Made by a program: the position numbers and the translations under genes. The notes beneath the pieces were generated by a model, which had not been told where the DNA came from, made no database searches, and saw nothing but the letters and a program-made list of their open reading frames with translations. From Bacteroidales bacterium (GTDB taxonomy: Bacteria > Bacteroidota > Bacteroidia > Bacteroidales > UBA12481), in contig JAGLDP010000001.1 of NCBI GenBank assembly GCA_023145515.1, forward strand, positions 1 to 58,438: 58,438 nucleotides of DNA, read 5' to 3'. This document shows positions 7,467-28,163 of this stretch, one piece after another. Each line of letters begins with the position of its first letter. The first letter of the stretch is position 1.

Positions 7467-8633
7467 ATGAAGCAGTCGAAAAAACCTCAAAATACGAACG
7501 TACTCGTAATATCGGCAGCTCATTTCTTTCATGATGTGTATACTGCTTTTCTTGCGCCTGTTTTGCCTTTGCTCATTGAAAAATTGGGCATTAATTTATT
7601 CCAGGCTGGAATACTGTCTGTATTTCAAAGAATTCCAACTCTTTTCAATCCTTTAATCGGAATTCTTGCTGAGCGTGTTCAAGCCAGATATTTTATTATT
7701 CTGACTCCTGCAATAACTGCTATGAGTATGAGCTTGATAGGAATTGCCCCTAATTTTACTGTTCTGGCAGTGGTTATGTTGGTCTCTGGATTCAGTTCTG
7801 CCTTTTTTCATGTGCCTAGTCCTGTAATGATCCGAAAAGTATCAGGCGACAAATTAGGGATGGGGATGAGTTTCTTTATGGTTGGAGGAGAATTGGCCAG
7901 AACCGCTGGTCCGATTGCAATTCTTGCAGCTGTTTCATTATGGGGACTAGAAGAAACCTGGAAGTTAATGCCTGTAGGAATACTGGCTTCCATTTTCTTG
8001 TTTTACAGGCTTAAGGATATTGAAATCAGAAAGGATTTCCATCAGAGGCAGATAAAGACAAATTATTATCAAATATTCAGGAGTTTACTCCCAATGTTTA
8101 TCAGTCTTTCTGGCTTTACATTTATGTTTGGAGCCATCAAATCTTCTCTTACACTCTATTTACCCACATATCTAAGTGGTGAAGGATATTCGATATGGAT
8201 AGCAGGAGCTTCTCTGTCTATTCTGCAGGCAGCAGGAGTGGCTGGGACGTTAATTTCAGGACCTTTGGCTGATAAAATTGGAAACAGGAAGGTGTTGCGT
8301 ATCGTGGCAGTTTCAACACCCTTATTGATGGCGTTATTCACCCAGCTTGATCCTATTTATGCTATACCGGTTCTGCTGATTATGGGTGTCTTTCTTTTTG
8401 CCCCAAATCCAATACTATTGGCAGTAGTTAACAATACCGAGGGGCCAAATAAAACTTTTATTAATGGCATTTACTTCACCATTAACTTTCTTTTAAATGC
8501 TGTGATGATTATGATAATGGGCTTCATTGCAGATCGAATTGGCTTAGCAATGACCTATAAAATATCGGTGTTGGGTGGTATCGCTGCTATCCCTTTTATC
8601 TGGACAATGAAAAAAGGTAGTTATACAGAATAG
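7467..8633 (+). CDS. MFS transporter
   Basis: About 12 hydrophobic helices. The N-terminal 'HFFHDVYTAFLAPVLPLL' motif is typical of Fsr-like MFS proteins. The ATG at 7467 lies 1 nt after the upstream stop. Confidence 0.8.
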   Translation: MKQSKKPQNTNVLVISAAHFFHDVYTAFLAPVLPLLIEKLGINLFQAGILSVFQRIPTLFNPLIGILAERVQARYFIILTPAITAMSMSLIGIAPNFTVLAVVMLVSGFSSAFFHVPSPVMIRKVSGDKLGMGMSFFMVGGELARTAGPIAILAAVSLWGLEETWKLMPVGILASIFLFYRLKDIEIRKDFHQRQIKTNYYQIFRSLLPMFISLSGFTFMFGAIKSSLTLYLPTYLSGEGYSIWIAGASLSILQAAGVAGTLISGPLADKIGNRKVLRIVAVSTPLLMALFTQLDPIYAIPVLLIMGVFLFAPNPILLAVVNNTEGPNKTFINGIYFTINFLLNAVMIMIMGFIADRIGLAMTYKISVLGGIAAIPFIWTMKKGSYTE

Positions 8634-10179: not shown

Positions 10180-10266
10180 GTTTAACATCTTTTAACAAAT
10201 GGTTTTTAAACCCTTTCGTTGTATTTTTATCCAACTTTTAAGTTTATAACGAAGAATCTTATTATT

Positions 10267-11154
10267 GTGAATATAGCAATTGAAGACCTTACTCAGATTT
10301 ACCCCAATGGAAACCGGGCACTAAAAGATATCAATCTTGAGATCAAGGATGGTATGTTTGGATTGCTTGGTCCGAATGGAGCAGGTAAATCAACACTAAT
10401 GAAAATCCTGGTAACTCTGATGAAACCTTCACAGGGGAAGATTACTGTGAATGGTTTGGATTTGCAAAAAAACCGACGAAAGGTGAGATCAGTTCTGGGG
10501 TATTTACCTCAGGATTTTCGCTTTTTTGCCAAGCTTAGTACCTGGGAGTTCCTTGATTATTCAGCTCGTCTATCCGGTCTTCGGGATTCAAAGAAAAGAA
10601 ATTCTGAAGTAGATGCGATGCTTGAACAGGTAGGCCTGTTTGATGTTCGCGATCGTAAGGCCAACAAGCTTTCAGGGGGGATGAAAAGACGATTGGGTAT
10701 TGCTCAGGCCTTGATAGGAGATCCTAAAATAGTGATTGTTGATGAGCCAACAACAGGTCTTGATCCGGATGAAAGAATCAGGTTCAGAAATCTGCTCTCA
10801 AAAATGACAGAAAAGGAAATGATCATTATTCTTTCAACGCATATTGTTAGTGATATCTCAAGTACATGTAACGATATGGCGCTGTTAGATGATGGACAGC
10901 TGGTTTTCAACGGCTCACCTGACCAATTGATAGCCAAGGCCAAAGGTCATGTATTTCAATTGAGCGTGTCAAATGCTGAATTTGATAGAGTGAACGAGAA
11001 ATATAATGTGATCTCAACAATTCCGTCTGTAAATGGCTGGGAAATGCAGATTGTTGCCGATGAGTTTACTGAAATGCCTGCCACCTTAGTAGAGCCAAAT
11101 CTTGAACATGCTTATGTTTATTTTATGGAACACGATTTAAAAAACCAGGATTAA
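10267..11154 (+). CDS. ABC transporter ATP-binding protein (ABC-2 type)
   Basis: Walker A 'GPNGAGKST', Q-loop 'GYLPQDF', signature 'LSGGMKRRLGIAQ', Walker B 'IVIVDEPTTGLD', H-loop 'STHIV'. GTG 10267 chosen (VNIAIEDLTQIY...). The track start at 10219 is a TTG. Confidence 0.9.
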   Translation: MNIAIEDLTQIYPNGNRALKDINLEIKDGMFGLLGPNGAGKSTLMKILVTLMKPSQGKITVNGLDLQKNRRKVRSVLGYLPQDFRFFAKLSTWEFLDYSARLSGLRDSKKRNSEVDAMLEQVGLFDVRDRKANKLSGGMKRRLGIAQALIGDPKIVIVDEPTTGLDPDERIRFRNLLSKMTEKEMIIILSTHIVSDISSTCNDMALLDDGQLVFNGSPDQLIAKAKGHVFQLSVSNAEFDRVNEKYNVISTIPSVNGWEMQIVADEFTEMPATLVEPNLEHAYVYFMEHDLKNQD

Positions 11155-11166
11155 GCACATTTGATT

Positions 11167-14100
11167 ATGGGATTTATTGATAACATACGCACCGTGGCCC
11201 GCTTCGAATTAAGAACTCTCTTAAGAAGCTGGTTTTTTAGAATCTTTTCCGTTTTAACTCTGTTGATTCTATTAGGAATGAATATAGCCACTCTCACAGA
11301 AAGTGGAGATAATAACTGGGCAATTCGCTCAATTATTTCAAATATCCCCTATATGAATATGGCCTTTCTTAATATTGCCCAGGCTCTGCTTGCCATATTC
11401 CTTGCCTCAGACTTCCTTAAAAGAGATAAAAAGCTGGATACTACTGAGGTAATCTACACTCGCTCCATGACTAACTGGGAGTATGTTTGGGGAAAGACCT
11501 TGGGTGTAGTTTTGGTTTTTGGTATTTTGAATTTTCTGGTATTTCTGATGGCTCTAATCATCAATATTGTGATATCAGGTGTTGATGTTGATTATTTGGC
11601 TTACCTGCTTTATCCATTTTTGTTAGGATTTCCTACTCTTATTTTTACTCTGGGACTGGCTTTTCTGCTTATGTCTCTGATTCGAAATCAGGCTGTAACT
11701 CTGGTTGTATTATTAGGATTAGCTGCCTTGAGTTTGTTTTTTATTCAGGATAAAGTCAATCATCTCTTTGATTATATGGCTTTTACCTTTCCGTTTATGT
11801 GGTCTGACCTAATTGGATCAGGGAACCTACAGGAGATACTGCTGCATCGTGGTATCTACCTCTTTCTTGGATTAGCCTTTATTTTTGCTACAATTCTTCT
11901 CCTACAACGTCTGCCTCAATCTCGTCCGCTTTCAATACTCTCTTTTGTATTAATGCTGGGACTACTTGTTTTGGGATTGGGTGGTGGATTTACCTACTGG
12001 ACCAGCTTTAATAACGATAAGGAGTTCAGACAGGAGGTGAAAGAACTGAATGATATGGTTAGTAAGTTACCAGTTGTGCAAATTGAGACTTATGATCTTA
12101 AATTGGAGCATCTGGATGGATCTATATCTGTAGTTGCTAGTCTGGTTTCTGAAAAGGATGCTTCTGAGCTTCCAGAAACCCTGGTGTTTTCACTTAACCC
12201 AGGATTAATTATAGCTCAATGTAGTATAAATGGTGATGCTGTGGATTTTCAGCGTGAGAAGCATATTGTTAGAGTGCAAAAACCATCTGGTGTTACAGGA
12301 AAAGTGAAAATTGATTTTTCTTATCAGGGCGTTATCGATGAAAGAATCTGCTATTTAGATATTTCAGATGAAAATCTGACAACTAAGCATGGTCCGAGTT
12401 TTATTGTTGCTTCACCTAAGCGGCATGGTATTATCCAAAAGGATTATGTTTTACTCACCCCTGAATCTGTTTGGTATCCTGTTTCGGGTGGAACCTTTGG
12501 ATCAAACCTATCGGTGATGCCGGTGAAGCAATTCAGCAGTTACAATCTTGAAGTAACAACACAGGGAGGAATGATACCTATTTCTCAGGGTAAATCATCT
12601 CATGATGGCGATAATTGGAGTTTTGACTCTCAAACTCCTTTCCATGGAATTAGCCTGGTTATCGGTAATTATGAGAGTAAAAGTCTTGAATTAGATAGTC
12701 TTCTGCTTGAGATTCACTATTATAAAGGGCATGATAGTTTTTTTGAAATTCTTGGGCTTTTGGCCGATACATTACCAATGCTTGTGAATGAAACCCTCGA
12801 GGATTACCAAAGAAGTCTTGGCTTGAGCTATCCCTATGATTTTATGAAACTGGTAGAAGCTCCGGTACAGTTTTATTCGTATGACAGGATGTGGGCAAAA
12901 GGATATGATTATGTGCAGCCAGGAATGATTCTTTATCCTGAGAACCTATCATTTCTGAAACGTGGAAACATACGTAAGGAACTGGATCGGGCTATCGACA
13001 GAGCACTAGATAGAGATGACATGTCAACAGACGAGGATCTTCAAGCTCAGATTTTTATGAATTTGATTAAAAATAACTTCATCCAGGGTGTGACGAATTA
13101 CAGGATGATTATGCGTGGAGGGAGTTATAGCTCTTCTGAGTCAGATGCTCCACCATGGAGCATATTTCCAAACTATTTTGTTTATGCCAATAATTTTGTT
13201 TCTGATGAGTTTCAAATGATCAATGCAACTCTCGAATCATATATTGGAAGCAAGATAAATGTAACACGTGGATTCGGAAGAAGTATGGGGGGAATGTCAG
13301 GCGAGGAGAAAGCTAATCTGTCTCTGGTAGAGAATTCATTTGCTGAATTATTAAATATCCCTGATGAGAAGAATATTCTGCAATCAGTGATAGAGTCTAA
13401 AGGAAAACAACTCTTTAATTACCTTGAGGCTTCAATAGGAACAGATGAGTTTATCTCATTTATTACAAGTGAACTCGAAGGTTCAAGGTATACTGATGTT
13501 CTGTTCGATGATTTTGCTCAAAGGATTTTGGATAGTTATTCTATTGATATTAGTTCTTTTATGGAGAACTGGTATCAGGGAACTGATTTGCCGTCATTTT
13601 TGGTAACAGATGTGAGGAATTATGAGATACAGGAGGGAGAGAATACTGTTTTCCAGATCTTCTTTACCATTTCCAATACAGGGAATGTGGATGGCATGGT
13701 TAATGTCAGCTTTCGTACTGGTGGTAGAGGTGGACGTATGGGTGGCATGGGCATGGGGGGAGTGAGAAGCGCCCAAATTACAACATATTCTCTTGCAGGA
13801 CGCGATGATGCTACAAACCATCTTTACCTTGTTCCTGCTCAAACTGCTTATGAGTATGCTCTCATTCTTGATGACCAGCCACGAATGATGTCGGTTAATA
13901 CTTTAATCTCATCTAACCTTCCAGCTAACCTTACTTATCCCTTCCCGGATATCGAGAAAAATCGAATGGAGGGTAGTGAATTAGCTAAGCAAACAGAGCT
14001 TGTGACTACTCTTGCCCAGCCAAATGAGCTGATAGTAGATAATGAGGATAGAGGCTTCTCTGTTCATGAAGAAGGAACCTCAAATAAACTTTCAGGAATT

Positions 14101-14586
14101 CTCGGAATAGATCAAAAAAAATCTGATTTTAAGTATCAGGGTTTGAATGTCTGGCGACCTCCTTTGACATGGTCGTTAACAACCCAAACTGGGTTTTATG
14201 GTGATTATATTCGTTCAGCTCATTATACACGAAGTGGTGAAGGCGAAAGATATGTTGAATGGGAAATGGATATTACTGAAGCAGGGTACTATGACGTATA
14301 TTGTTATCTTAACTCAATGGTTGCACGCATGAGTCGATTCAGAGGACGCGGAGGTGATCGGGGGAGTGGCCGTGGAGGTGAATCTGATATAAAAGATGTG
14401 TATCATTATACCGTTTTTCACGATGATGGTGAAGATGAGGTGTCAAAAGCATTATCTAACATTGAGGATGGCTGGAATATGCTGGGGTCTTTCTACCTTT
14501 CTCCAGGAAAGGCAAAAATAAGACTGACTAATGAGAATACCGGAAGGCTGGTAGTAGCCGATGCTGTGAAATGGGAAAAACAATAA
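11167..14586 (+). CDS. ABC-2-type permease fused to a ~850-aa extracytoplasmic domain with a golvesin-like C-terminal module
   Basis: The first ~280 aa hold about 6 TM helices, with 'DKKLDTTEVIYTRSMTNWEYVWGK' typical of ABC-2 permeases. The rest is hydrophilic. The C-terminal 'GYYDVY...YTVFHDDGEDEV...GWNMLGSFYL..G.AKIRL...TGRLVVADAVKWEK' fits the golvesin C-terminal-like pattern. No HEXXH motif occurs anywhere in the protein. Confidence 0.75.
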   Translation: MGFIDNIRTVARFELRTLLRSWFFRIFSVLTLLILLGMNIATLTESGDNNWAIRSIISNIPYMNMAFLNIAQALLAIFLASDFLKRDKKLDTTEVIYTRSMTNWEYVWGKTLGVVLVFGILNFLVFLMALIINIVISGVDVDYLAYLLYPFLLGFPTLIFTLGLAFLLMSLIRNQAVTLVVLLGLAALSLFFIQDKVNHLFDYMAFTFPFMWSDLIGSGNLQEILLHRGIYLFLGLAFIFATILLLQRLPQSRPLSILSFVLMLGLLVLGLGGGFTYWTSFNNDKEFRQEVKELNDMVSKLPVVQIETYDLKLEHLDGSISVVASLVSEKDASELPETLVFSLNPGLIIAQCSINGDAVDFQREKHIVRVQKPSGVTGKVKIDFSYQGVIDERICYLDISDENLTTKHGPSFIVASPKRHGIIQKDYVLLTPESVWYPVSGGTFGSNLSVMPVKQFSSYNLEVTTQGGMIPISQGKSSHDGDNWSFDSQTPFHGISLVIGNYESKSLELDSLLLEIHYYKGHDSFFEILGLLADTLPMLVNETLEDYQRSLGLSYPYDFMKLVEAPVQFYSYDRMWAKGYDYVQPGMILYPENLSFLKRGNIRKELDRAIDRALDRDDMSTDEDLQAQIFMNLIKNNFIQGVTNYRMIMRGGSYSSSESDAPPWSIFPNYFVYANNFVSDEFQMINATLESYIGSKINVTRGFGRSMGGMSGEEKANLSLVENSFAELLNIPDEKNILQSVIESKGKQLFNYLEASIGTDEFISFITSELEGSRYTDVLFDDFAQRILDSYSIDISSFMENWYQGTDLPSFLVTDVRNYEIQEGENTVFQIFFTISNTGNVDGMVNVSFRTGGRGGRMGGMGMGGVRSAQITTYSLAGRDDATNHLYLVPAQTAYEYALILDDQPRMMSVNTLISSNLPANLTYPFPDIEKNRMEGSELAKQTELVTTLAQPNELIVDNEDRGFSVHEEGTSNKLSGILGIDQKKSDFKYQGLNVWRPPLTWSLTTQTGFYGDYIRSAHYTRSGEGERYVEWEMDITEAGYYDVYCYLNSMVARMSRFRGRGGDRGSGRGGESDIKDVYHYTVFHDDGEDEVSKALSNIEDGWNMLGSFYLSPGKAKIRLTNENTGRLVVADAVKWEKQ

Positions 14587-14606
14587 AAACAACAACAAAT
14601 TTCTAT

Positions 14607-16082
14607 ATGATGAAAAGATTAAGCTTCATTCTGTTAATTTTTATTCCGATGCTGATGATATCAGTTAAAGGAAAAGGGCAGCAAGTTCTGAGATTTCAGG
14701 ATGCTATCTCAGTGGCAGCAAAGCATAGTCCTGATATTAAGCGTGTTCAATTGAATATGGACAGGTCTCAGGAGTTACTTAAAGCTCAGAAAGCATCTCT
14801 TAAATCAAACTTCAGCTTCAATGTTAATCCCTTGAAGTACTCTCATGATCGTGGATTTAATGAGTATTACAATGAGTGGTACACCAAAGACAACTTGAGT
14901 AGCTCTGGTGCTCTGACGGTGTCTCAACCTTTGATTTGGACAGATGGAAATATTTCTATAAGCAATCAACTCAGGTGGCAAAATAGCTATAGTGAGATAA
15001 ATGATGCCAGGAATAAAACTTTCACTAATAATCTTTTTCTCCGTTATGATCAACCGCTTTTTACATATAACAGAACCAGGCAGGTACTGCAGGAACTTGA
15101 GCTGGATCTTGAAAATGCAGAGCTTAGTTTTGCTATGCAAATGCTGAATCTGGAAAGAATGGTTGCGCAAGGCTTCTATAGTGTTCATCAGCAACAGATG
15201 AGTTTGCAGATAACTGAAGAGGAGTATGCTAACCAGGTTGAGAGTTTCAATATTATAAAGAATAAGGTAGAAGGAGGTCTTGCTGCTCTTGAAGAGTTAT
15301 ACCAGGCTGAGTTAAACCTGGCAAAGAGTAATTCATCACTTAAGAATGCAATAGTTTCACTTGAAAATGCTAAAGACCAATTCAAAGTGCAGATTGGCAT
15401 GGATATTTATGAAGAGTTAGCCGTTTTGGCTAATGTTCAGACTGATTCAGTTCCAATTGACCTTAAAAAATCAATTGAAATGGGATTAGCAAACCGTTTG
15501 GAACTACGCCAGAGAGAAATTGATATTCAAAATGCGCAGTTTAGTCTCATCCAGACAAAATCAATTAATGAGTTTCGTGGAAATCTTTCGGTTGAAGTAG
15601 GACTCTTTGGTGATAATAAAAACCTGCCAAATATATATGATTCTCCAACTGATAATGAGCAGCTTGCACTTTCATTACAAATTCCGATTTTTGATTGGGG
15701 AGAAAGAAAAGCCCGGATCGCAGCTGCTGAAATTTCGATAAAATCATCTGAATTATCTTTGGCTGACGAAAGAAATGATATCATTATTGGAATCAGGGAA
15801 GTGTATAGGAATTTGCAAAACCTTCTGATACAGATCGATATATCTCATCAGAGTGAGCGCAATGCTCAACTAACTTATGAAATCAATTATGAGCGTTATA
15901 AAAATGGAGACCTGACAGGAATGGATCTTAGTCTATACCAAAATCAGCTTTCCCAAAGTAAAATTGATCTGTCAAATGCTATGATCAATTATAAACTCGA
16001 GTTATTAAATATGAAGATCCAAACCTTATACGACTGGGAAACCCAGACCTCTGTTGTTCCTGAAGAAATAAAAAATAAATAA
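14607..16082 (+). CDS. TolC-family outer membrane efflux protein
   Basis: Signal peptide 'MMKRLSFILLIFIPMLMISV' followed by two repeated coiled-coil/beta halves typical of OEP/TolC proteins. ATG 14607 chosen. Confidence 0.85.
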   Translation: MMKRLSFILLIFIPMLMISVKGKGQQVLRFQDAISVAAKHSPDIKRVQLNMDRSQELLKAQKASLKSNFSFNVNPLKYSHDRGFNEYYNEWYTKDNLSSSGALTVSQPLIWTDGNISISNQLRWQNSYSEINDARNKTFTNNLFLRYDQPLFTYNRTRQVLQELELDLENAELSFAMQMLNLERMVAQGFYSVHQQQMSLQITEEEYANQVESFNIIKNKVEGGLAALEELYQAELNLAKSNSSLKNAIVSLENAKDQFKVQIGMDIYEELAVLANVQTDSVPIDLKKSIEMGLANRLELRQREIDIQNAQFSLIQTKSINEFRGNLSVEVGLFGDNKNLPNIYDSPTDNEQLALSLQIPIFDWGERKARIAAAEISIKSSELSLADERNDIIIGIREVYRNLQNLLIQIDISHQSERNAQLTYEINYERYKNGDLTGMDLSLYQNQLSQSKIDLSNAMINYKLELLNMKIQTLYDWETQTSVVPEEIKNK

Positions 16083-17176: not shown

Positions 17177-20100
17177 ATGAAGAAGATCACCCAATTTTCT
17201 GTCAATAATCCGGTAACAGTCACCATGCTGATCCTTGGGGTTATCCTCTTAGGATTTATTTCCTTCGGAAAGCTTGGAACAGACCTCATGCCGGCAATGA
17301 ATAATCCACGTATCTACGTGGAGCTGACTGCTGGTGAGCGACCACCAGAAGAGATAGAGAAACAATTTGTAGATCAGATTGAATCCCTTTCCATCCGCCA
17401 GGCTGATGTTATAGGAGTATCATCTATGACCAGGGTTGGTTCAGCTCAAATAGCTGTTGAATATGCCTGGGATAAAGATATGGATGAGGCCTTTTTGGAA
17501 TTGCAGAAGGCTCTTGGATCCTATAATCAGAATGGCGACTTAGATGAGATTTTGATCACTCAGCATGATCCTAATGAAACACCTGTTTTGTTGGTGGGTA
17601 TGCAGCATGAATCAATTACGGATATGAATGAGCTTCGTAAAGTGGCTGAGAATTATATTCGAAATGAGCTGATCCGCCTTGAAGGAGTGGCTGATGTGAA
17701 GCTTGAAGGAATGGAGGAGAATGAGGTGGTTATTAAAACCGACTCATACAGAATGGAGGCTTTTGGTGTTAGCACAAATACTATCAGTGCGCAAATCCAA
17801 AACTACAATCGTAACGTGTCAGGAGGAAGTATCGTTGAGATGGGAACCAAGTATGTTATCAAGGGAGTCAGTATTTTTGAAGAACTTGATGATCTGCGGA
17901 AACTAATTATTGGCTTTCAGCAAGCTGAGTCTTCAGCCCAGGAAGAGAATCCTAACCGTGTACCCATTTTCTTGTCAGATGTTGCTGACATTAATTTTGA
18001 GAATAAGGAGCCAGTTAATATTGTTAGAATTAATGGCGTTAGAAGTATAGGACTAGGAATCTATAAGGAACCAAAATTTAATACTGTTAAGGCAGTTGAA
18101 GAATTGGAGATTGCTCTGATTGAGATCGAGAGAGCACTCCCAGGTTATTCTTTTCAGATTATCCAGGATCAGGGTAAATTTATTTCCAGTGCAATCGGTG
18201 AAGTGGAGAACACTGCCTTGATAGGAATCGTTCTGGCTGTTTTTATTCTGTTTATTTTTCTTAGAAGGATAGGTACTACTCTGATTGCCTCCATTGCTAT
18301 TCCGATATCCATTATTGCTACATTTAATCTGATGTATTTTAATGGACTGACAATCAATGTGATGACTTTGGGTGGCTTGGCTCTTGGTGCAGGAATGTTG
18401 GTTGATAATGCTATTGTGGTAATGGAAAATATCTTCCGGCACCTTGAGCGTGGCTTGTCGGTTAAAGAAGCCGCTATTACCGGAACAGCAGAAGTAGGTG
18501 GGGCAATTACTGCTTCAACCTTGACTACAATTGTGGTTTTTCTCCCTATCGTTTATATGCAGGGTGCATCAGGTGAACTTTTTAAAGATCAGGCCTGGAC
18601 AGTAGCTTTTTCCCTGGTGAGTTCTTTAGTTGTAGCTATTCTGGTTATACCAATGTTGTTTTCCAAATTCATTCGCATAAAATCTACTAAAACAATAAGT
18701 AAAGCCATTGGTTTTTCTTGGTATCCAAAAATATTGACTGGCATTTTAAAGGTGAAAACCATGGTAATGTTTCTGACACTGGCTATTGTAGTTGGTACAG
18801 CTTTCTTGGTTCCGAAGATAGGTAGCGAGTTTATGCCAAGAACAGAGACCAGAGAGTTTACTATGGAATTGAAGTTGCCTGAAGGAACCCAAATTGAGCG
18901 CACAGAACAGGCCGTGAATACTCTGGATGAGATGATTACCGAACTGCTTGGCGATGATATTGCCACCCTGTACGCAAGGATTGGTCCTGCGTCCAGCGGA
19001 TCAAATACAGCTACGGTTTTTGAAAATGAAAATACTGCCTCCATAAAAGTTCTTCTGAGCGATGATGCAACAATGACATCCAGTCAGATTATTAGACAAC
19101 TTGGTGTACTGGTAGCTAATATGTCTAATCTCGAAGTAAAGTTTATCCAGGATGAAACTGCTCTGCAGGCTACTCTTGGTACTGATGAAGCTCCTATTGT
19201 GGTTGAGGTTGTTGGAGAAGAGTTTGATCTTATTGAGCCTCTTACAGAACAGGTGAAGCAAATTATGCTGAATTCTGAGGATCTTTTCAATGTTGAGGGA
19301 AGTTTTGAACAGGGAGCACCTGAAATTGAAGTGGTTATTGATCGTTATAGGGCCGGGATTTATAGTATCTCAATTGATGAGATAATCAATCAGCTTAAGG
19401 CTGTTTTGACTGGTGCTGATGCCGGACAGTTTGAGCATGAAGGGGAATTGAAGGATATAACGATACGACTACCAGATGTTGGTTTTAGCCAACTTGAAGA
19501 TATTGTTCTTACTGCAGGTAATAGTGAATTGCGCCTAAGTGATGTCGCAACTATCAGGATTGTCAATGCCCCAAAAGAAATAATCAGAACAAACCAGAAT
19601 AGAGTAGGTCAGGTTTCAGCTGAAATTCGTAATGATAAACCAATTGATAAAGTAGTGAGTCAGCTCGATGAACAATTTGATGCTATCACTCTTCCTCCGG
19701 GATACTATATCAGACAGGCTGGAGAAGAGCTCAAAAGAAAAGAATCAATGGGCAGTCTGCGTTTTGCCCTGATTTTGTCGCTGATCCTTGTGTATATGGT
19801 TTTAGCCTCTCAATTTGAATCTCTCATTCATCCCTTTACCATCATCCTGACAGTTCCGATGGCGACAGTTGGAACCATTCTGTTGTTTTTTATCATGGGA
19901 CAAACAATGAATATTATGGCTCTGATCGGTTTAATTATGCTGATTGGTATAGCTGTCAATGATTCCATTATTCTTGTTGATAGAATAAACCAGTTGAAAG
20001 CACTTGGGTCATCGAGAAAAGAAGCTATTATTCAGGCTGCTCATCAAAGAATTCGACCTATTTTGATGACTAGTTTGACTACCATTCTGGCCTTATTGCC

Positions 20101-20269
20101 CTTAACCTTTGGTTTTGGTGAAAGTGTATCTCTTCGGGCACCGATGGCTCTCGCCGTGATTGGCGGACTCTTTACATCGACCCTTTTAACTCTAATTGTT
20201 ATCCCTTGTGTGTATGAAATATTTGATCGTTTCAAGGATTGGATATCACCAGTAAGAACAACAGTATAG
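17177..20269 (+). CDS. efflux RND transporter permease subunit (AcrB family), paralog 1
   Basis: 1030 aa in the 12-TM / two-periplasmic-loop layout. TM4 'GAGMLVDNAIVVMENI', TM10 'LIGIAVNDSIILVD', TM11 'RIRPILMTSLTTILALLPL'. Confidence 0.92.
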   Translation: MKKITQFSVNNPVTVTMLILGVILLGFISFGKLGTDLMPAMNNPRIYVELTAGERPPEEIEKQFVDQIESLSIRQADVIGVSSMTRVGSAQIAVEYAWDKDMDEAFLELQKALGSYNQNGDLDEILITQHDPNETPVLLVGMQHESITDMNELRKVAENYIRNELIRLEGVADVKLEGMEENEVVIKTDSYRMEAFGVSTNTISAQIQNYNRNVSGGSIVEMGTKYVIKGVSIFEELDDLRKLIIGFQQAESSAQEENPNRVPIFLSDVADINFENKEPVNIVRINGVRSIGLGIYKEPKFNTVKAVEELEIALIEIERALPGYSFQIIQDQGKFISSAIGEVENTALIGIVLAVFILFIFLRRIGTTLIASIAIPISIIATFNLMYFNGLTINVMTLGGLALGAGMLVDNAIVVMENIFRHLERGLSVKEAAITGTAEVGGAITASTLTTIVVFLPIVYMQGASGELFKDQAWTVAFSLVSSLVVAILVIPMLFSKFIRIKSTKTISKAIGFSWYPKILTGILKVKTMVMFLTLAIVVGTAFLVPKIGSEFMPRTETREFTMELKLPEGTQIERTEQAVNTLDEMITELLGDDIATLYARIGPASSGSNTATVFENENTASIKVLLSDDATMTSSQIIRQLGVLVANMSNLEVKFIQDETALQATLGTDEAPIVVEVVGEEFDLIEPLTEQVKQIMLNSEDLFNVEGSFEQGAPEIEVVIDRYRAGIYSISIDEIINQLKAVLTGADAGQFEHEGELKDITIRLPDVGFSQLEDIVLTAGNSELRLSDVATIRIVNAPKEIIRTNQNRVGQVSAEIRNDKPIDKVVSQLDEQFDAITLPPGYYIRQAGEELKRKESMGSLRFALILSLILVYMVLASQFESLIHPFTIILTVPMATVGTILLFFIMGQTMNIMALIGLIMLIGIAVNDSIILVDRINQLKALGSSRKEAIIQAAHQRIRPILMTSLTTILALLPLTFGFGESVSLRAPMALAVIGGLFTSTLLTLIVIPCVYEIFDRFKDWISPVRTTV

Positions 20270-20278
20270 GCAGGTAAT

Positions 20279-23200
20279 ATGAAGGCAGTAATATATCGGA
20301 AAACACTTATTGGGATGGTCTTTATAGGCCTTACCTTACTTGGTGTGGTTTCCTATCAGCAGCTACCCGTTGAGCTATTCCCGAATGCAGTTGCACCTCA
20401 GTTAATAGTACAGATTAGCTCTCAGATAGAGGTAGATCCAAGCTATATGGAAAGGCAGGCCATTATCCCAGTTGAAGGAGCAATTGGGACATTGGATGAT
20501 ATAGAGGAAATTAGTTCTAATGCTTCAAGAAGAAGGGGGATTATCTATATATCCTATCAGCAGGATGTTAATATCAAATTCGCTGAACTGAAGCTTCAAG
20601 AGAAAATGAACGGGATTCGCGATGAACTCCCGGAGGAATTTATGATTACGGTGGTGAAGGTAGACCTTGAGCAAATGGCAAATCAGGTGATGGGCCTTGA
20701 GGTGCGGGGAAGCGGAGGTGTTAACCGAATTAGAAATATCACAGATGAGGATATTGTTTCCAAGCTTGAAAATATTGATGGGATAGCCGGATTGGAGGTT
20801 TATGGGGGACAAGAAAAATCCTTAGAAATTACACTTGATGAGGATGCATGTGAAGCTTATGGTATTACTCCATTCCAGGTGCGAAATGCTTTGAACCAGA
20901 ATGGAAAGTTAAGAACCTTTGTAGGGCCAGTTGTTGACGGACAAAAAAAACTTTTTGTTCATGTATCTGCTGAATATGTTCGCATAGCTGATATCGAAAC
21001 TCTTGTGGTTTCTGAAAATGGTCCGATTCTTCTTAGAGACGTTGGAGAAGTGTACTTTGGAGTTAAGGAGCAAACAAGCTATTCGCGTGTAAACGCTCAA
21101 GAATCAGTTACCGTGAGTCTGATCAGTGATTCTCAAGCCAATCTGATTGATCTCTCTCATGAAGTAGAAACTGTTGTTGAACAGCTGAATAAAGAATTAG
21201 CAGCCATTGGTATTGAGGTGGTTGTTCAGGATAATATGGCCGAACTGATGGAGAAGAATATCGATCAGATTATCCAGCTGGCTCTGACAGGCGGACTATT
21301 GGCTATTATGGTATTGTGGATTTTTCTGGGGAATGTCAGACTTGTATTTGCTATTGCACTCGCTATCCCGATATCGGTGTATACTGCTTTTAACTTCTTC
21401 TATGCTGCTGGAATATCGATCAATAGCCTAACCCTGGTGGGTATGGCTCTCGCTATTGGTATGCTGCTTGATAACTCGGTTGTTGTTCTTGAAAACATAT
21501 ACCGACATGCCTCGCAGGGAAAAAACCCAATAGAGTCGGTGCTCCTTGGTACACGTGAGGTGTGGAGATCAATTCTGGCAGCTACTCTGACTACTGTAAC
21601 AGTATTTTTGCCTTTTATTTTCTCAGATAATTTTCTGATACGAATAATGGGTAACCACATTGGAGTATCTATTATTTCTACTCTCCTGGTTTCACTATTT
21701 GTGGCTCTGTTTTTTGTTCCGATGGTAACCCATTGGTTTATGATGCGGAAAGGAGGACAGAAACAAATGGTTTATGCTAAGGTGTCTTTGCATAATCGCC
21801 TTATACAGACCTATATATTGATTCTTAAGGCTAGTATGCGTCGACCTGCTTTGACTATTGTGGGAGCACTCGTAGTGTTTTTTATTACCATTTTTATTGC
21901 TTTGGCTGTTTCAACCAATACTCTACAGGAGGCAGAAACCGATGAAATCAGAATGTCGGTTACAATGGCGGGTGGTACTACTTTAGAGACTACGGATATC
22001 ACTGTTCGTATCATGGAGGAGAGACTAATGCAGATTGCCGAAAGAGAGGATCTGACTGCCGAGGTTAGAGAGGGTGAGGCTACAGTAACTATGAAGCTAA
22101 AGGAGGATTATCAGGATATAGACGGACGATCACTGGCAGGGATTAAAGAGGATATGGAGAGAAGATTAAAGGATCTTCGTTCAGCTGAAATTGAATTTCA
22201 GGAATTCTCTGCTTCATCCGGATTTGGCGGCGGTGGTGGTGGAGGTGGTGGTCCGGGTAATTCAGGAGGTGGATTTGAATCCTTCCTCGGAATCGGTACA
22301 CAGCAGGAAAAAGTCATCATCAAAGGCCAGAATTTTGAAGTACTGAGGAGCGTTGCTGAGGATATGGAGTATTACCTTGATGAGCTTGATAATATTGCAA
22401 GCGTTAATCTTAGTGTTGCTGATAACCGTCCTGAAGTTCACATGGCTTTCAACACAAGAGAGATGGGCGAACGCAATGTACCCCTATCAAGTGTATCCTC
22501 TGAATTGAGCTCTTTCCCCTCAGAAATTACCTCCGGAGCAGTTTTTAAGGAAGGTACAGAGGAATACGATATTATTATCAAAATGGATATTCCTGAGGAA
22601 GAAACAGAACGATCCATGGATGAGCTGAAAGAACTCAATATCCCTTCTTCTGATAGACAATCACAGCATGAGCTTCAGCAGTTAAGCCATATCTATTTTT
22701 CTCGCGGATTGTCAGATATCGATAGGGTAAACCAGGAAAAACAAGTTGAGGTAACTTATCGTTTTGAGAACGAGGTTAACAACTCAAAAGCTCTGTTAGA
22801 CCTTGCTCGTACAGAGATTGATGAGCTTATAGCAGGAGTTAGTATTCCATCTGGGGTGGCAGTAGAAGTGGTGCATGAAGAAAATGATTTTAAGGAGTTT
22901 TATTTCCTTATTGCAGCTGCTTTTATTCTCATTTTTATGATTTTGGCCTCTGTCTTTGAGTCATTTCTCACGCCAATAGTTCTTATGTTTACTATTCCCC
23001 TGGCTGGGATTGGTTCATTTTTGGCATTGATATTTACGAAAAATTCAATTTTGAATGCCAATACTCTTACAGGTTTTCTGATTTTACTGGGTATTGTGGT
23101 GAATAATGGTATAATTCTGATCGACTACGCCAATCTGCTGAGAAAGAGAGGGTTCCGTCTCTCCAGAGCACTCATGACTGCTGGTCTGGCAAGGATAAGA

Positions 23201-24991
23201 CCTATTATGATTACTGCAGTTACTACTATTGTGGCAATGCTGCCTCTGGCAATGGGGAAATCTGAATATGTTAGCTTGATAGGAGCACCCTTTGCTATTA
23301 CAGTAATTGGCGGACTAAGTGTTAGTACAATACTGACTCTTGTTTTTGTTCCTACTTTATACTCCGGACTAGAATTCTCGCTTGCATGGATTCGTAGCCA
23401 GAAATGGTGGGTGAAAGTATTTATGACAGTAACAGTACTTGGACTAGGAGTTCTGATATATTTCAGAGTAGATGCTTTCCTATGGCAACTATTGCTTTAC
23501 TTACTAGTTACTGTGGGTGTTCCAGCCTCAACATGGTTCTTGCTAAACAGTTTGCGAAAAGCAAGTGAAACTGTAATTCCAGATGATAAGCCAATAATCA
23601 TTCATATTCAGAATTTGGTGAAGATTTACGATTGGGATAACAAATTCACCCGTGAATGGAAATCCGGATTGGCAATCAGAAAACGATTAGGATTAACCCG
23701 AACATACGAATCAGCGAAAGATTTGATTGTTCTGATATGGCAGATTCCTCTTCTGGGATTTTTGCTGTTTTTCGTGTATTTCTATCTTGATTCAGGACTA
23801 TGGCTATTTGTGCTTACCTTATTTGTGTATGCCATCTTGTTAATGGTTTGGCAGCCCATTGGATCATGGATGAGCAACTCAGGTGGCAAGAGAAAGAAAT
23901 TTGCAGGACTGGTAAGAATGCTGATTCTATGGGGATTCCCGGTATTTTCCTTAATTCTTTTCCATAAGCGCTGGGATAATATGGCCTTAGAGATTCTGAT
24001 TGGATTAGCATGGTTTTTTGCTTTGATGGTATATGCAACTGCAAGGGTGCTTAATGAGAAGCACATTAATGTAAACCGTATTACCGGTCGTTTTGGTCTT
24101 CTCCGTAGGGGTTTCTTCAGAATGGTTCAATCGATCCCGGTGATCGGAAAGAAAAAGAAACCATTCAAAGCCCTGGCAGGAGTATCGATGGAAATTTCGT
24201 CTGGTATGTTTGGATTATTAGGACCTAATGGTGCCGGTAAAACTACCATGATGAGAATTATTTGCGGAATTCTTGAGCAAAGCTATGGCAAGATATGGAT
24301 CAGCGGAGAGGATACTCAGATTAAAAGAGAGGAACTGCAAGGTCTTATTGGGTATCTGCCTCAGGAATTTGGTATGTATGAGAATATGACCGCTGACGAG
24401 TTTCTTCATTACCAAGGAATGCTCAAAGGCTTGACAGATCCTAAGGTACGTTCTGAACGGGTTGATTATACCCTCAATGCGGTGCATATGATTGAAAAGA
24501 AGGATCACAAAATTGGATCGTTCTCAGGAGGAATGAAGCAAAGGATTGGAATAGCACAAATACTTCTCCATTTGCCAAGAATTCTTGTGGTTGATGAGCC
24601 TACAGCCGGACTAGATCCGCGTGAGAGAATCCGTTTTAGAAATTTGCTGGTGCAACTTTCACGCGAAAGGGTCGTAATTTTCTCAACGCATATTATTGAA
24701 GATATATCCAGCTCGTGCAACCAGGTTGCTGTACTCAATCAAGGCGAGCTGAAGTATCTTGGCAATCCTCAGGAGATGTCAGACACAGCCAAAGGCGCTG
24801 TATGGCAGGCTGAAGTGACGGTAAGTGAATTTGATAAACTTTCTGAAGAATACAAGGTGGTGCACCATATGCGCGATGGCAATAATATACGTGTTAGATT
24901 GCTTGCCGCTGAGAAGCCTACTGATGATGCTATACCAGTTACACCTTTGCTTGAGGATGCTTATTTGTGGATGTTAGGTAAAAAAATCTGA
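20279..24991 (+). CDS. RND (AcrB-type) permease, paralog 2, fused in frame to extra TM helices and a C-terminal ABC ATPase domain
   Basis: A single stop-free 1570-codon ORF. Residues 1 to ~1030 form a full RND layout (TM4 '[16 protein letters not shown]', TM11 '[19 protein letters not shown]'). Two further TM helices follow, then '[14 protein letters not shown]', then four TM helices. The NBD follows with Walker A 'GPNGAGKTT' (24221-24246), signature '[13 protein letters not shown]', Walker B '[12 protein letters not shown]' and H-loop 'STHII'. Confidence 0.85.
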   Translation: [1570 protein letters not shown]

Positions 24992-24998
24992 ATAATTA

Positions 24999-25715
24999 AT
25001 GGCAACAAATAAAATAACAATAATTGCTGATTGGTTGTGGCGAATGCTTCGTTATAATCTGAAAATCATATTTGCTAACAAATTCATTTGGTTTCTATTG
25101 GCAGCACTAGGATTCTTTATCATGGTTACTCTGATCACTTTGTTTTCAGGAAGCATGATAACAACCGGTATAGTGTATAACCTATTGCTTTACCCTGGTT
25201 TACTTCTTATATTTTACCCTACAGTTTTTGGAATTCAAAATGATGAAGATAATCGGATTCTTGAAATACTTTTCGGTATTCCTGACTATCGATATAAGGT
25301 TTGGTTGGTGAGACTAATAATGATCTTTATTCTGGTTTTTGCAGTGCTTTTTCTCCTTGCCTGGTTTTGTTCTTGGGCATTGGCCAGCTTTACTCCAATT
25401 TATATGGCTTATCAGCTGATCTTCCCTATTTTCTTCATGGGAACGCTTGCTTTTTTTCTATCAACAATAGTTAGGAATGGAATCGGAACAGCTGTTATTT
25501 TGGTTATTATTGGTATAGTTTTTACCTCACTTGCTGAAGCTATCGAACAAAGCAAATGGAACGTTTTTCTAAACCCTTTCAAAATGCCAGAACAGCTTAG
25601 CGAAGCAGTCTGGCTAAATACAGTTCATGATAACAGATTAATTATACTTGTCGCGATAATCTTATGCATACTAGGTGGCTTGCTTAGTATGCAGAGGCGG
25701 GAGAAGTTTATTTAG
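24999..25715 (+). CDS. ABC-2-type transporter permease (6 TM)
   Basis: 238 aa with six hydrophobic helices. 'NDEDNRILEILFGIPDYRYKVWLVRL' is equivalent to the ABC-2 loop motif of the 11167 permease. Starts 7 nt after the fused NBD. Confidence 0.7.
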   Translation: MATNKITIIADWLWRMLRYNLKIIFANKFIWFLLAALGFFIMVTLITLFSGSMITTGIVYNLLLYPGLLLIFYPTVFGIQNDEDNRILEILFGIPDYRYKVWLVRLIMIFILVFAVLFLLAWFCSWALASFTPIYMAYQLIFPIFFMGTLAFFLSTIVRNGIGTAVILVIIGIVFTSLAEAIEQSKWNVFLNPFKMPEQLSEAVWLNTVHDNRLIILVAIILCILGGLLSMQRREKFI

Positions 25716-25775: not shown

Positions 25776-28163
25776 ATGATTGTGTTGAACCTTAAACTGG
25801 CTTTAAAAATCGTATTTGATAAGCGAAATTCCTCTTGGATTAGCATTCTTGGATTAGCGATTGCTTTTGCTTCTTTATTCTATATTTATTCCTACGTTTC
25901 CTTTGAGTTAAGCTATGATTCGCAGCATGAGGATCATAGTCGCATTTATAGAATTAGCGGCGATATCGTGGCTGCTGAGAATACAATGACACATGCTGTA
26001 TTGGGACCTTCAATGGGGCAAGGCCTGAAGGATGAATTTCCTGCTGTTGAATCCTTTGTTCGTCTTATTCCATTCCATGAATCAATCCTTCTCGAAACAG
26101 AAATGAAACAGTTTTCAGTGGATGAAGCATATAGAGTTGACTCAACCATTTTTGATATATTCAGTTTGGTCTTTCTGTATGGATCTCCTCATTCTGCGCT
26201 CACAAATCCCAATGAAATTGTTATTAATCAAAGCCTGAGTCAGAAGTTTTTTGGTGATCAGAATTCAGTAGGTGAGGTGCTGGAATATGATGGTCAGATA
26301 TATACAATAGTAGGCGTAGTAGAAGATTCTCCAGTCAATTCTCATCACAAGCTAAACGTCTTATTTTCAATCGACTCGCCTTTTACCAGAACAGGAGATA
26401 TTTCTCCTGTTCAAGAGTCAGAGTACTATTGGGCGCCATCAGCATTTCATTTTATTATGCTAAAACAGCATACTGAGATAGAATCAATCACAGATAATTT
26501 TGAGCCCTTCTTTGATAAATACATGAGCACTTTCGGAAAACTGTTAAACGCCGATTTCAATCTAATAGCCATTCCTCTAAAAGACTTGCATTTTTCTCGC
26601 CAAATGACATATGATCTTCCGAAAGGGAACAAGACCTATGCTTACATACTCATTATGGTTGGCCTTTTCATATTCCTGATTGCCACCATCAACTATTCTA
26701 ATCTTTTAGTCTCTCAGACTATTACACAGGCCAAAAGTGTGGGTCTAAGAAAAGTACTGGGAGCCAATCAGCTGACTCTTTACTTTCAATTTCTACTAAA
26801 CTCTCTGGTTTTAATTTTAGTCTCTGTAATTCTGGCCAATATATTTTTTCAGATTAGTTTACCCTGGTCAAAAGAACTGACTGAACTGGAAAGATCCATC
26901 TTCTCTGGCTCAAGGATACTGACTCTCTCTCTTGTTTTCATACTTCTCACAAGCCTGACTACTTCTTTGATACCTTTTCTTAATCACCGGAAAAAGAGTG
27001 GACTGCAATTACTCCAAGCCCGGCAAAGAAGTTTATCTGGATTAGGGAGTATTCAGTTTGGAAGAGTATCTACTATCGTCCAGTATGCCCTGACCATTGT
27101 TTTAGTGATTTCAGTTTTTGTGATTACGCGGCAATTAAACTTCCTGATGAAAAGTGAAATGGGTTTCGACAAGGAAGGTATTGTGATGTTACCTTTGAAT
27201 AGCCTAAAAGAGCAATCGCAAGGCATTAAATCTTTCAAAGAGGAAATCAGTAAAAATTCTTCTGTGGCAAATGCCTCCTTTTCAAGCAATATACCTGGAG
27301 AAATATTAGGAACATCTCATTTTCAGATAGACCGTGATGGGGAGACTGTGACCAAAATTGTTCATACACTGGGGGTTGATTATGAGTATTTTACGCTTAT
27401 GGGAATGGAGTTTAAAGAAGGACGTAATTTTGGGGAGTTATTTAGCGATAACAACTTTCAATCGGTGATCATTAATGAGGCCTTTATCGATTTTTGTGGT
27501 TACAACGGCAGTATGTTAGGAGTAGAATTAGCAGGAACTAAAGTTGTTGGAGTGCTTAAAAACGTCTCCTTCAACTCTCTGCATAACCCGGCAGCACCCT
27601 TAGTCTTTTATTTGAGTGAAGAGACAAATGGCTATTTGAATATTAAATTGAATACCACCAGACTAGATGAAGCAGTCAAAATGATTCAAAGTAATTGGGA
27701 GGTTGTTTATCCCGATGTCCCGTTTGTTTTCCAATTCCTTGATCAACAAGTGGCAAAAATGTATACTGAGGATCAAAAGATTAACAAGCTGATCAAGCTT
27801 TTCACACTGATCAGCCTGATTATTTCCCTTATGGGCTTTCTAAATCTTTCTACATTAATCATGAAAAGAAAGACGAAGGAAATAGGAATTCGAAAAGTAA
27901 ACGGAGCTACCGTTTATGAGATCATGGGTATGCTGAACAAAAATTTTGCCGTCTGGATTCTGATTTCTTTTGTAATCGCCGGTCCCATAGCTTATTATGC
28001 AGCAATTAAGTGGCTGGAGAACTTTGCATACAAGACTACATTGCCGTGGTGGATATTTGCTTTGTCAGGGCTTCTGGCATTAAGTATTGCCCTGTTAACG
28101 GTGAGCTGGCAGAGCTGGCGCGCAGCAACAAAAAACCCAATTGAAGCTTTACGATACGAGTAA
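25776..28163 (+). CDS. FtsX/MacB-type ABC transporter permease (duplicated FtsX + MacB periplasmic domains)
   Basis: 795 aa. An N-terminal TM helix, a large periplasmic domain and three TM helices, with this unit repeated twice. 'KEIGIRKVNGAT' is the FtsX cytoplasmic loop motif. Confidence 0.88.
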   Translation: MIVLNLKLALKIVFDKRNSSWISILGLAIAFASLFYIYSYVSFELSYDSQHEDHSRIYRISGDIVAAENTMTHAVLGPSMGQGLKDEFPAVESFVRLIPFHESILLETEMKQFSVDEAYRVDSTIFDIFSLVFLYGSPHSALTNPNEIVINQSLSQKFFGDQNSVGEVLEYDGQIYTIVGVVEDSPVNSHHKLNVLFSIDSPFTRTGDISPVQESEYYWAPSAFHFIMLKQHTEIESITDNFEPFFDKYMSTFGKLLNADFNLIAIPLKDLHFSRQMTYDLPKGNKTYAYILIMVGLFIFLIATINYSNLLVSQTITQAKSVGLRKVLGANQLTLYFQFLLNSLVLILVSVILANIFFQISLPWSKELTELERSIFSGSRILTLSLVFILLTSLTTSLIPFLNHRKKSGLQLLQARQRSLSGLGSIQFGRVSTIVQYALTIVLVISVFVITRQLNFLMKSEMGFDKEGIVMLPLNSLKEQSQGIKSFKEEISKNSSVANASFSSNIPGEILGTSHFQIDRDGETVTKIVHTLGVDYEYFTLMGMEFKEGRNFGELFSDNNFQSVIINEAFIDFCGYNGSMLGVELAGTKVVGVLKNVSFNSLHNPAAPLVFYLSEETNGYLNIKLNTTRLDEAVKMIQSNWEVVYPDVPFVFQFLDQQVAKMYTEDQKINKLIKLFTLISLIISLMGFLNLSTLIMKRKTKEIGIRKVNGATVYEIMGMLNKNFAVWILISFVIAGPIAYYAAIKWLENFAYKTTLPWWIFALSGLLALSIALLTVSWQSWRAATKNPIEALRYE

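Follow-up and report, generated by a model that had tools for sequence, protein, structure and literature searches.

We describe a protein of a Bacteroidales bacterium in which the ATPase domain of an ATP-binding cassette (ABC) transporter, fused to the C-terminus of a resistance-nodulation-division (RND) permease, is split after its first beta-strand by a predicted membrane insert. The gene lies on contig JAGLDP010000001.1 (GenBank assembly GCA_023145515.1), whose positions 1 to 58,438 make up the stretch of 58,438 nucleotides (nt) analyzed here and called the window. We consider it likely, with good confidence, that the C-terminal part is a complete and probably competent nucleotide-binding domain (NBD) of the ABC-2/ABCA type, whose hairpin loop between strands 1 and 2 has grown into a membrane module of ~176 residues. 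The gene is a single uninterrupted open reading frame at 20279..24991 on the forward (+) strand, as are all the features given below. It encodes 1570 amino acids (aa) and holds all the peptides named in an earlier reading of the DNA (hereafter the original prediction). From N- to C-terminus, the protein consists of the RND permease, two extra transmembrane (TM) helices, strand 1, the insert of ~176 residues, and the rest of the ABC ATPase.

Residues 1106-1117 (23594..23629) are strand 1 of the C-terminal ATPase, with the A-loop tyrosine Tyr1117, and stand 176 residues upstream of strand 2, as identified by alignments with ABCA1 and a paralog, by a modelled strand, and by a motif shared by the orthologues. 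The original prediction had proposed this homology for a slightly longer peptide, which we find at residues 1106-1123 (nt 23594-23647); the coordinates given for it, 23591-23640, started 3 nt off and ended 7 nt short. The peptide with which the domain resumes ('KPFKALAGV...') starts at residue 1294, nt 24158, exactly where it had been placed, and the two peptides are separated by 170 residues, near the ~173 first estimated. The comparison with the stand-alone paralog was also quoted correctly at nt 10267. This paralog (10219..11154) is a canonical, unsplit ATPase encoded at the start of the gene cluster; it shares 44-45% identity with the ATPase of the fusion and has the same C-terminal domain. 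Pfam profiles and full-length NCBIfam ATPase models (GldA, DrrA, LptB, and others) match it from position 1-2, whereas the same NCBIfam models match the fusion only from residues ~1291-1297, at profile position ~10. Hence, the contiguous NBD of the fusion is one without its first ~10 residues.

The missing residues are recovered when the insert is deleted in silico, joining the strand directly to residue 1289. With the unspliced fusion, BLASTP aligned the paralog only from its residue 33. With the spliced construct, the alignment (E-value 4e-88) reached back to paralog residue 19, through strand 1. A phmmer search of PDB with the spliced sequence gave alignments starting inside the strand at high posterior probability, including those with NBD1 and NBD2 of human ABCA1, where the strand was aligned with 'IQNLVKVY' and 'IKELTKIY', respectively. 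Seven of its eight core residues, the tyrosine included, are identical to those of strand 1 of ABCA1 NBD1. In ABC ATPases, the tyrosine at the end of strand 1 forms the A-loop. Splicing also shifted the start of several NCBIfam profile matches to position 1-3, with gains of 3 to 7 bits over the controls (shuffled, reversed, unrelated, and contiguous constructs) in the ECF-type, GlcV, and LptB models. The homology proposed by the original prediction is thus reflected in alignments that run through the strand with the paralog, with both NBDs of ABCA1, and with several profiles.

The strand is a constant feature of the family. We collected 57 species-level genomes in which a single reading frame of 1570-1620 aa encodes the protein with the same arrangement; these full-length orthologues share 56-68% identity across their final 560 residues. 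A loose strand-1 pattern, [ILVM].[ILVM]..[ILVM].K.Y, is found 195-220 residues ahead of Walker A in all 57. The same pattern occurs 12 times in the 509,247 residues of a background set of open reading frames, i.e., 0.006 occurrences are expected per 260-residue extension upstream of the NBD. Divergent members (25-30% identity) retain 'I.I.NL.KIY[DG]' 200-215 residues ahead of Walker A. The A-loop position is conserved across the family as a tyrosine, rarely a phenylalanine, and few segments of the 260-residue extension are conserved as well as strand 1. A strand-1 profile drawn from the canonical ABC ATPases of the fetched loci was dropped, as there are almost no canonical NBDs in these loci. 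One might argue that the motif is a relic or a chance match, that the NBD starts around residue 1294 without strand 1 or A-loop, and that the helices are a mere membrane anchor or linker. Such a reading would fit the contiguous profile alignments beginning at position ~10 and the outcome of the splice test, where the profile gain is small because the strand is short; the shuffled strand gained as well in the GldA and PhnT2 models, which makes the test weakly discriminating. We nevertheless regard it as very unlikely in view of the fixed position of the motif in every orthologue against the chance expectation, of its relatives in the most divergent members, of the match with ABCA1, of the conservation of the A-loop aromatic residue, and of a laddered strand predicted with high confidence at this site. 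The domain therefore begins, as ABC ATPases do, with a strand 1 ending in an A-loop aromatic residue, but its strands 1 and 2 are not joined by the short contiguous hairpin turn of these enzymes; in this respect a hairpin bundle within an NBD is non-canonical, as originally noted.

The predicted strand comes from an AlphaFold2 (AF2) model of residues 1036-1570, computed with 128 homologues in the alignment (mean predicted local distance difference test score, pLDDT, of 85.4; predicted TM-score, pTM, of 0.70). In this model, residues 1108-1117 form a 10-residue strand according to DSSP, with a pLDDT of 91 for the block. The next strand consists of residues 1296-1306 (strand 2). Since every other modelled strand belongs to the NBD, the ladder partner of strand 1 must be the NBD sheet. 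Between the two strands, the model places an amphipathic helix (1122-1136), the helices 1155-1169, 1173-1200, 1203-1232, and 1235-1261, and a second amphipathic helix (1273-1285); the pLDDT of the four TM helices is 86-95. A different way of completing the domain would be an exchange in trans, where strand 1 of one protomer completes the NBD of its neighbor and the insert serves as a domain-swap arm. RND proteins are obligate oligomers, two RND genes are adjacent in the cluster, the linkers flanking the helices are conserved and, with 31 and 35 residues, long enough for an exchange, and a model of the monomer cannot distinguish cis from trans. Yet, AF2 closes the fold in cis at high local confidence, interfacial helices would account just as well for the conserved amphipathic linkers, and we know of no ABC NBD that swaps its strand 1. 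We thus find the exchange unlikely.

Before the chain reaches strand 1, it runs through the RND permease domain (hereafter RND2; 20279..23365, residues 1-1029), which has the 12-TM fold with two large periplasmic loops that defines RND permeases. It matches the Pfam family ACR_tran (HAE-1-like) over the full length (E-value 2.5e-159 for residues 2-1029, covering positions 3-1018 of the 1021 in the profile) and aligns with the E. coli AcrB from end to end. An extra TM hairpin follows (23405..23545), composed of TM13 (residues 1043-1062) and TM14 (residues 1067-1089), which correspond to hydrophobicity peaks and to helices 8-28 and 31-61 of the AF2 model. This pair, not counted in the original prediction, gives two hydrophobic peaks in 57 of the 57 orthologues and returns the chain to the cytoplasm after TM12 of the RND domain. 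RND permeases terminate in the cytoplasm. Because the RND C-terminus is cytoplasmic and TM13-14 is a hairpin, strand 1, the loop rich in lysine and arginine (K/R) in the middle of the insert, and the NBD are all expected on the cytoplasmic side.

The gap between Tyr1117 and Lys1294 comprises 176 residues and contains four TM helices. It opens with a cytoplasmic N-linker (23630..23722, residues 1118-1148), recognizable by its column conservation, which carries the first amphipathic helix (helix 87-101 of the model) and has a mean of 6.4 K+R per 16 residues in the orthologue family. The first hairpin of the insert (23723..23863) is made of TM15 (residues 1149-1170) and TM16 (residues 1173-1195), joined by an outer turn of 4 residues, with peaks of hydrophobicity (Kyte-Doolittle, KD, over 19 residues) of 2.39 and 2.37. 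In the orthologues, its TM segments have a fixed length of 21 residues with ~0.1-0.6 charged residues, the outer loop has 0.9 K+R, and the AF2 pLDDT is 86-92. A cytoplasmic K/R-rich loop (23864..23908, residues 1196-1210), with four K/R and no D/E in the protein of the window and a family mean of 5.0 K+R, leads to the second hairpin (23909..24052). The latter consists of TM17 (residues 1211-1228) and TM18 (residues 1237-1258) around an outer turn of 8 residues, with KD peaks of 2.01 and 2.05, fixed lengths of 19 and 21 residues in the orthologues, and a pLDDT of 91-95. The insert ends with a cytoplasmic C-linker (24053..24157, residues 1259-1293), which shows strong column conservation, carries the second amphipathic helix (helix 238-250 of the model), has a mean of 9.7 K+R, and displays the motif [VI]xR[IL]xG[RK] in nearly all homologues long enough to cover the region. 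The four hydrophobic segments are those of the original prediction.

Across the 57 orthologues, the four segments do not vary in length (21, 21, 19, and 21 residues) and are nearly free of charged residues, and the successive loops have on average 14.6, 0.9, 5.0, 1.1, and 9.7 K+R. These counts fit the positive-inside pattern, which gives an in-out-in-out-in topology. Hence, by predicted topology, the insert has an even number of membrane helices, namely four, and strands 1 and 2 are both cytoplasmic, in line with the earlier proposal that the chain comes back to the cytoplasm. A greedy count of hydrophobic peaks had given three helices in most orthologues; this was an artefact of its exclusion window at closely spaced hairpins, and the column-wise analysis was used instead. 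The flanking cytoplasmic linkers ('REWKSG..IRKRLG' and 'VNRI.GRF...R..') are conserved better than the TM helices, and the flanks of the insert are rich in aromatic residues and tryptophan. We give hardly any credence to the idea that the four segments make up a helical core buried in a soluble or peripheral domain. It could draw on the aromatic-rich TM15, with its lower family mean KD of 1.04, and on the fact that the membrane topology rests on prediction. Against it stand the nearly chargeless segments of 19-21 residues, the contrast between ~1 K/R in the turns of 4 and 8 residues and 5-15 in the other loops, the composition of the flanks, the position of the segments directly after 14 clear TM helices in the chain, and the length of the modelled helices (27-30 residues for 1173-1200, 1203-1232, and 1235-1261).

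The rest of the ABC ATPase, from strand 2 onward, and a C-terminal domain occupy residues 1294-1570 (24158..24991), with matches to Pfam ABC_tran (E-value 2.3e-27, residues 1301-1443) and to NCBIfam profiles of the GldA/DrrA type. All the motifs of an ABC ATPase are present and in order: Walker A (GPNGAGKT, 1315-1322), Q-loop (Q1362), signature (FSGGMKQR, 1415-1422), Walker B (ILVVDEPT, with E1440), D-loop (AGLD), and H-loop (H1471). They are nearly invariant among 129 homologues. With its motifs intact, the ATPase is probably catalytically competent. The best Foldseek matches of the AF2 model are TM_1403, ABCA7, ABCA3, ABCA4, ABCA1, LptB, and NosF, and the ATPase is assigned to the ABC-2/ABCA type on account of these matches.

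The fusion is present in at least 106 Bacteroidota species genomes, which is the number of relatives found in a scan of one genome per species. We analyzed the loci of 80 of these; they come from metagenome-assembled genomes (MAGs) of Bacteroidota/Bacteroidales and from one isolate, 'Bacteroidales bacterium 6E', and in most of them the protein, in the same arrangement, is encoded by a single reading frame of 1570-1620 aa. Searching with the insert, a word-indexed database yielded 14 proteins only, and HMMER yielded 81 proteins among 1.84 billion cluster representatives. All the full-length matches of the latter search have 1550-1585 aa, with the insert at residues ~1094-1295, and no relative of the insert was found outside the fusion family. 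The insert occurs only in the context of an RND permease fused to an NBD, and every full-length member has it. The original prediction had suggested looking for conservation among orthologues: the insert and strand 1 are kept down to 25-30% identity. When the NBD was the query, the 120 closest relatives (67-85% identity) were without exception members of the fusion family, most of them fragments on short contigs. The region that holds the insert (residues 1036-1294) matches no Pfam family, and the insert has no sequence relative in PDB.

The database entries of this family require some caution. They are named 'efflux RND transporter permease subunit' or 'AcrB/ABC-type ... ATPase subunit', and many are fragments, which makes the architecture invisible to routine annotation. 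Proteins of 460-494 aa that seem to be stand-alone combinations of insert and NBD were rejected as frameshifted or truncated fusion genes, in which the C-terminal end of the RND part is scrambled and the strand and the NBD share one reading frame. In frameshifted MAG assemblies, the gene appears as two, an 'RND' gene and an 'ABC' gene of 460-490 aa (positions 7500-8300 of locus L001 and 7700-8100 of locus L002). The protein P0002 derives from a chimeric contig and begins with the peptide MTGVQTCALPIY and a thioredoxin domain. One may wonder, given the many fragments and the MAGs with 'stand-alone' ABC genes, whether the fusion itself is an artefact, i.e., a frameshift, a chimeric contig, or a read-through joining separate RND, membrane-protein, and ABC genes. 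This is extremely unlikely, since the split cases are the frameshifted assemblies, the identical 1570-aa protein is found in five independent assemblies, and the 57 uninterrupted frames come from different species.

Insertions at this site of an NBD have a precedent in CFTR (ABCC7), whose NBD1 carries a regulatory insertion between strands 1 and 2 (PMC2217481). The site is the same, which indicates that additional residues can be accommodated in the hairpin between these strands while the fold is preserved. The two insertions are unrelated in sequence, and the CFTR insertion is ~32 residues long, soluble, mobile, and phosphorylated, whereas the one described here has ~176 residues, is ordered, and has four TM and two conserved amphipathic helices. 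The ATPases of ABC-2/ABCA-type systems (DrrA, GldA, TM_1403, NosF, and the NBDs of ABCA1/3/4/7) are the best matches of the fusion NBD in profile, sequence, and fold, C-terminal domain included. They differ from it in having a short contiguous turn between strands 1 and 2 and no fused RND permease. They work with type-V permeases; downstream of the fusion, a six-helix membrane protein is encoded whose predicted fold, judged by weak matches, may be of the type-V kind. MacB-type transporters are thought to transmit force mechanically. In the MacB/FtsX type (type VII), an NBD and a four-helix membrane domain are in one polypeptide, which acts with a membrane-fusion protein (MFP) and an outer-membrane factor (PMC8277102). 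There, the four helices follow a complete NBD and a large periplasmic domain lies between TM1 and TM2. Here, the helices are nested inside the NBD, the outer turns have 4 and 8 residues, and residues 1036-1294 match neither FtsX nor MacB_PCD of Pfam, which sets the insert apart from type VII. To our knowledge, an ABC ATPase core with TM helices nested inside it has never been reported. Neither in the literature that we searched nor in the 2021 Chemical Reviews survey of tripartite pumps did we find an RND-ABC fusion or TM helices nested in an NBD. Hence, the combination of a genuine ABC NBD and an RND permease in a nested architecture is one that we have not found described.

The insert suggests a mechanism. 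The membrane module would consist of an amphipathic helix, two helical hairpins (the four TM helices), and a second amphipathic helix. Strand 1 would fold back in cis onto the NBD sheet, such that Tyr1117 stacks on the adenine of ATP and completes the ATP site. The four helices, probably with TM13-14, would form a bundle pinning this site to the membrane beside the TM domain of the RND permease. The NBD would dimerize and, together with the putative type-V permease encoded downstream, make up an ABC-2 exporter. The ATP-driven closure of the NBD, or the movement of its beta-subdomain, would exert a direct pull on the helices that extend from the hairpin. In this way, the insert could be a built-in coupling element toward the permease, the RND domain, or both. 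Coupling of the ATPase to the RND TM domain, as first suggested in the original prediction, is plausible.

The proposed permease is the 238-aa membrane protein encoded directly downstream of the fusion (24999..25715), predicted to have six helices (AF2 pLDDT 85, pTM 0.82). In almost every locus long enough to show it, its gene comes after the fusion gene. Of the ~24 best Foldseek matches of the protein, nearly all are TM domains of the type-V/ABC-2 class (PmtD, ABCG5/8, CcmB, NosY, and ABCG25), and we take it for a putative type-V (ABC-2) permease that probably works with the split ATPase. It has no profile similarity with the insert (hhalign probability of 1%). The family of this protein comprises 4,927 clusters at 90% identity, has no Pfam model, and all its members are named 'hypothetical protein'; it has an invariant block, 'FGIQNDxDxRxxEILFGIPxYRYKVW'.

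Besides the modest power of the splice test, several points weigh against a complete NBD acting in this way. The Foldseek matches of the 238-aa protein are weak (E-values of 0.1-3, TM-scores of 0.5-0.59), and its matches to Pfam ABC2_membrane_2/3/4 are sub-threshold, the best E-value being 0.0014, and concern 4 of 30 members. The AF2 alignment is deep over the NBD but shallow and made of closely related sequences over strand 1. The original prediction had called for a structural model to see whether strand 1 packs back on the sheet; the model has the strand, but we infer its pairing with strand 2 from the DSSP state and pLDDT only. Membrane insertion is a prediction from the sequence. The ATPase activity, the oligomeric state, and the coupling to the RND domain or to the permease are likewise things that we infer or predict. 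Finally, RND pumps are trimers and NBDs are dimers, a symmetry mismatch that the model does not resolve.

The gene order around the fusion is conserved: ABC-2 permease-peptidase M1, outer-membrane efflux protein (OEP), MFP, RND1, the fusion (RND2::NBD), and the 238-aa membrane protein. RND1 (17177..20269) is a permease of 1030 aa without extension (Pfam ACR_tran, E-value 9.6e-206), lies directly upstream of the fusion, a position conserved across loci, and is a candidate heteromer partner of the fusion protein. MdtBC is a known case of heterotrimeric RND pump (PMC8277102). The cluster resembles it in having two adjacent RND permease genes after the MFP and OEP genes, and the best equivalog-level NCBIfam matches of the RND genes are MdtC and MdtB, though far below the cutoff (271 vs. 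1774 bits). Unlike the fusion, the MdtB/C proteins have neither extra helices nor an ATPase. By analogy, RND1 and RND2 may form a heteromer. In the periplasmic part of RND2, residues 646-666 of the fusion protein (nt 22214-22276) are a run of glycines, and one orthologue has a Gly/Ser/Thr-rich stretch at the equivalent site.

The residues of the proton relay differ from those of AcrB (D407, D408, K940, R971, and T978). D407, R971, and T978 are kept in both RND1 and RND2. The position of D408 is an asparagine in all 57 RND2 and in 52 of the 59 RND1, the other 7 having an aspartate. K940 is replaced by asparagine in all RND2 (57/57) and by asparagine or serine in all RND1 (59/59). As judged from these alignments, which cover this family, the canonical Asp-Asp-Lys relay appears to be incomplete in the ATPase-bearing pump; the difference may be specific to the family or usual among the RND pumps of Bacteroidota. 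The replacements of D408 and K940 would be compatible with a non-canonical energy supply.

These changes bring up an ATP-powered or ATP-gated RND pump, in which ATP would replace or supplement the proton-motive force. Two fusion protomers in a heterotrimer with one RND1 would pair their NBDs, and closure of the dimer would pull the nested helices and TM13-14, driving or licensing the conformational cycle of the RND pump. The putative type-V permease downstream would then be a substrate feeder or a second stator. A 1:2 stoichiometry of RND1 and RND2, which is speculation by analogy, would supply exactly two NBDs. We regard this scenario as rather improbable, though worth keeping in mind next to the preferred one, where the complete NBD serves an ABC-2 exporter.

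Other genes of the cluster deserve mention. The 1141-aa protein encoded at 11161-14586 has an N-terminal ABC-2 permease, a peptidase M1 segment, and a C-terminal Golvesin_C domain. Its gene adjoins that of the ATPase paralog (10219-11154) and heads the same operon in most related loci; together, the two proteins would give the cluster a further ABC-2 system, an unusual one. The gene of the outer-membrane factor (14571-16082) overlaps its end by 16 nt (14571-14586), and the following genes are separated by gaps of 3-24 nt through 25715. This overlap and these short gaps are consistent with one translationally coupled operon. A MacB-like permease of 795 aa (MacB_PCD and FtsX; 25776-28163) is encoded directly after the operon, with no adjacent ATPase gene; it was not found at the equivalent position in related loci.

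Few protein domains have been studied as much as ABC ATPases. If the NBD described here is functional with a helical bundle beside its A-loop, it would represent a novel link between ATP hydrolysis and the membrane: the hairpin that generates the force would run on covalently into TM helices rather than dock on a coupling helix. RND pumps are textbook machines driven by the proton-motive force. The module is found at the C-terminal end of an RND permease whose operon, for a tripartite pump, is conserved. This raises the question of whether RND pumps can be driven or gated by ATP.

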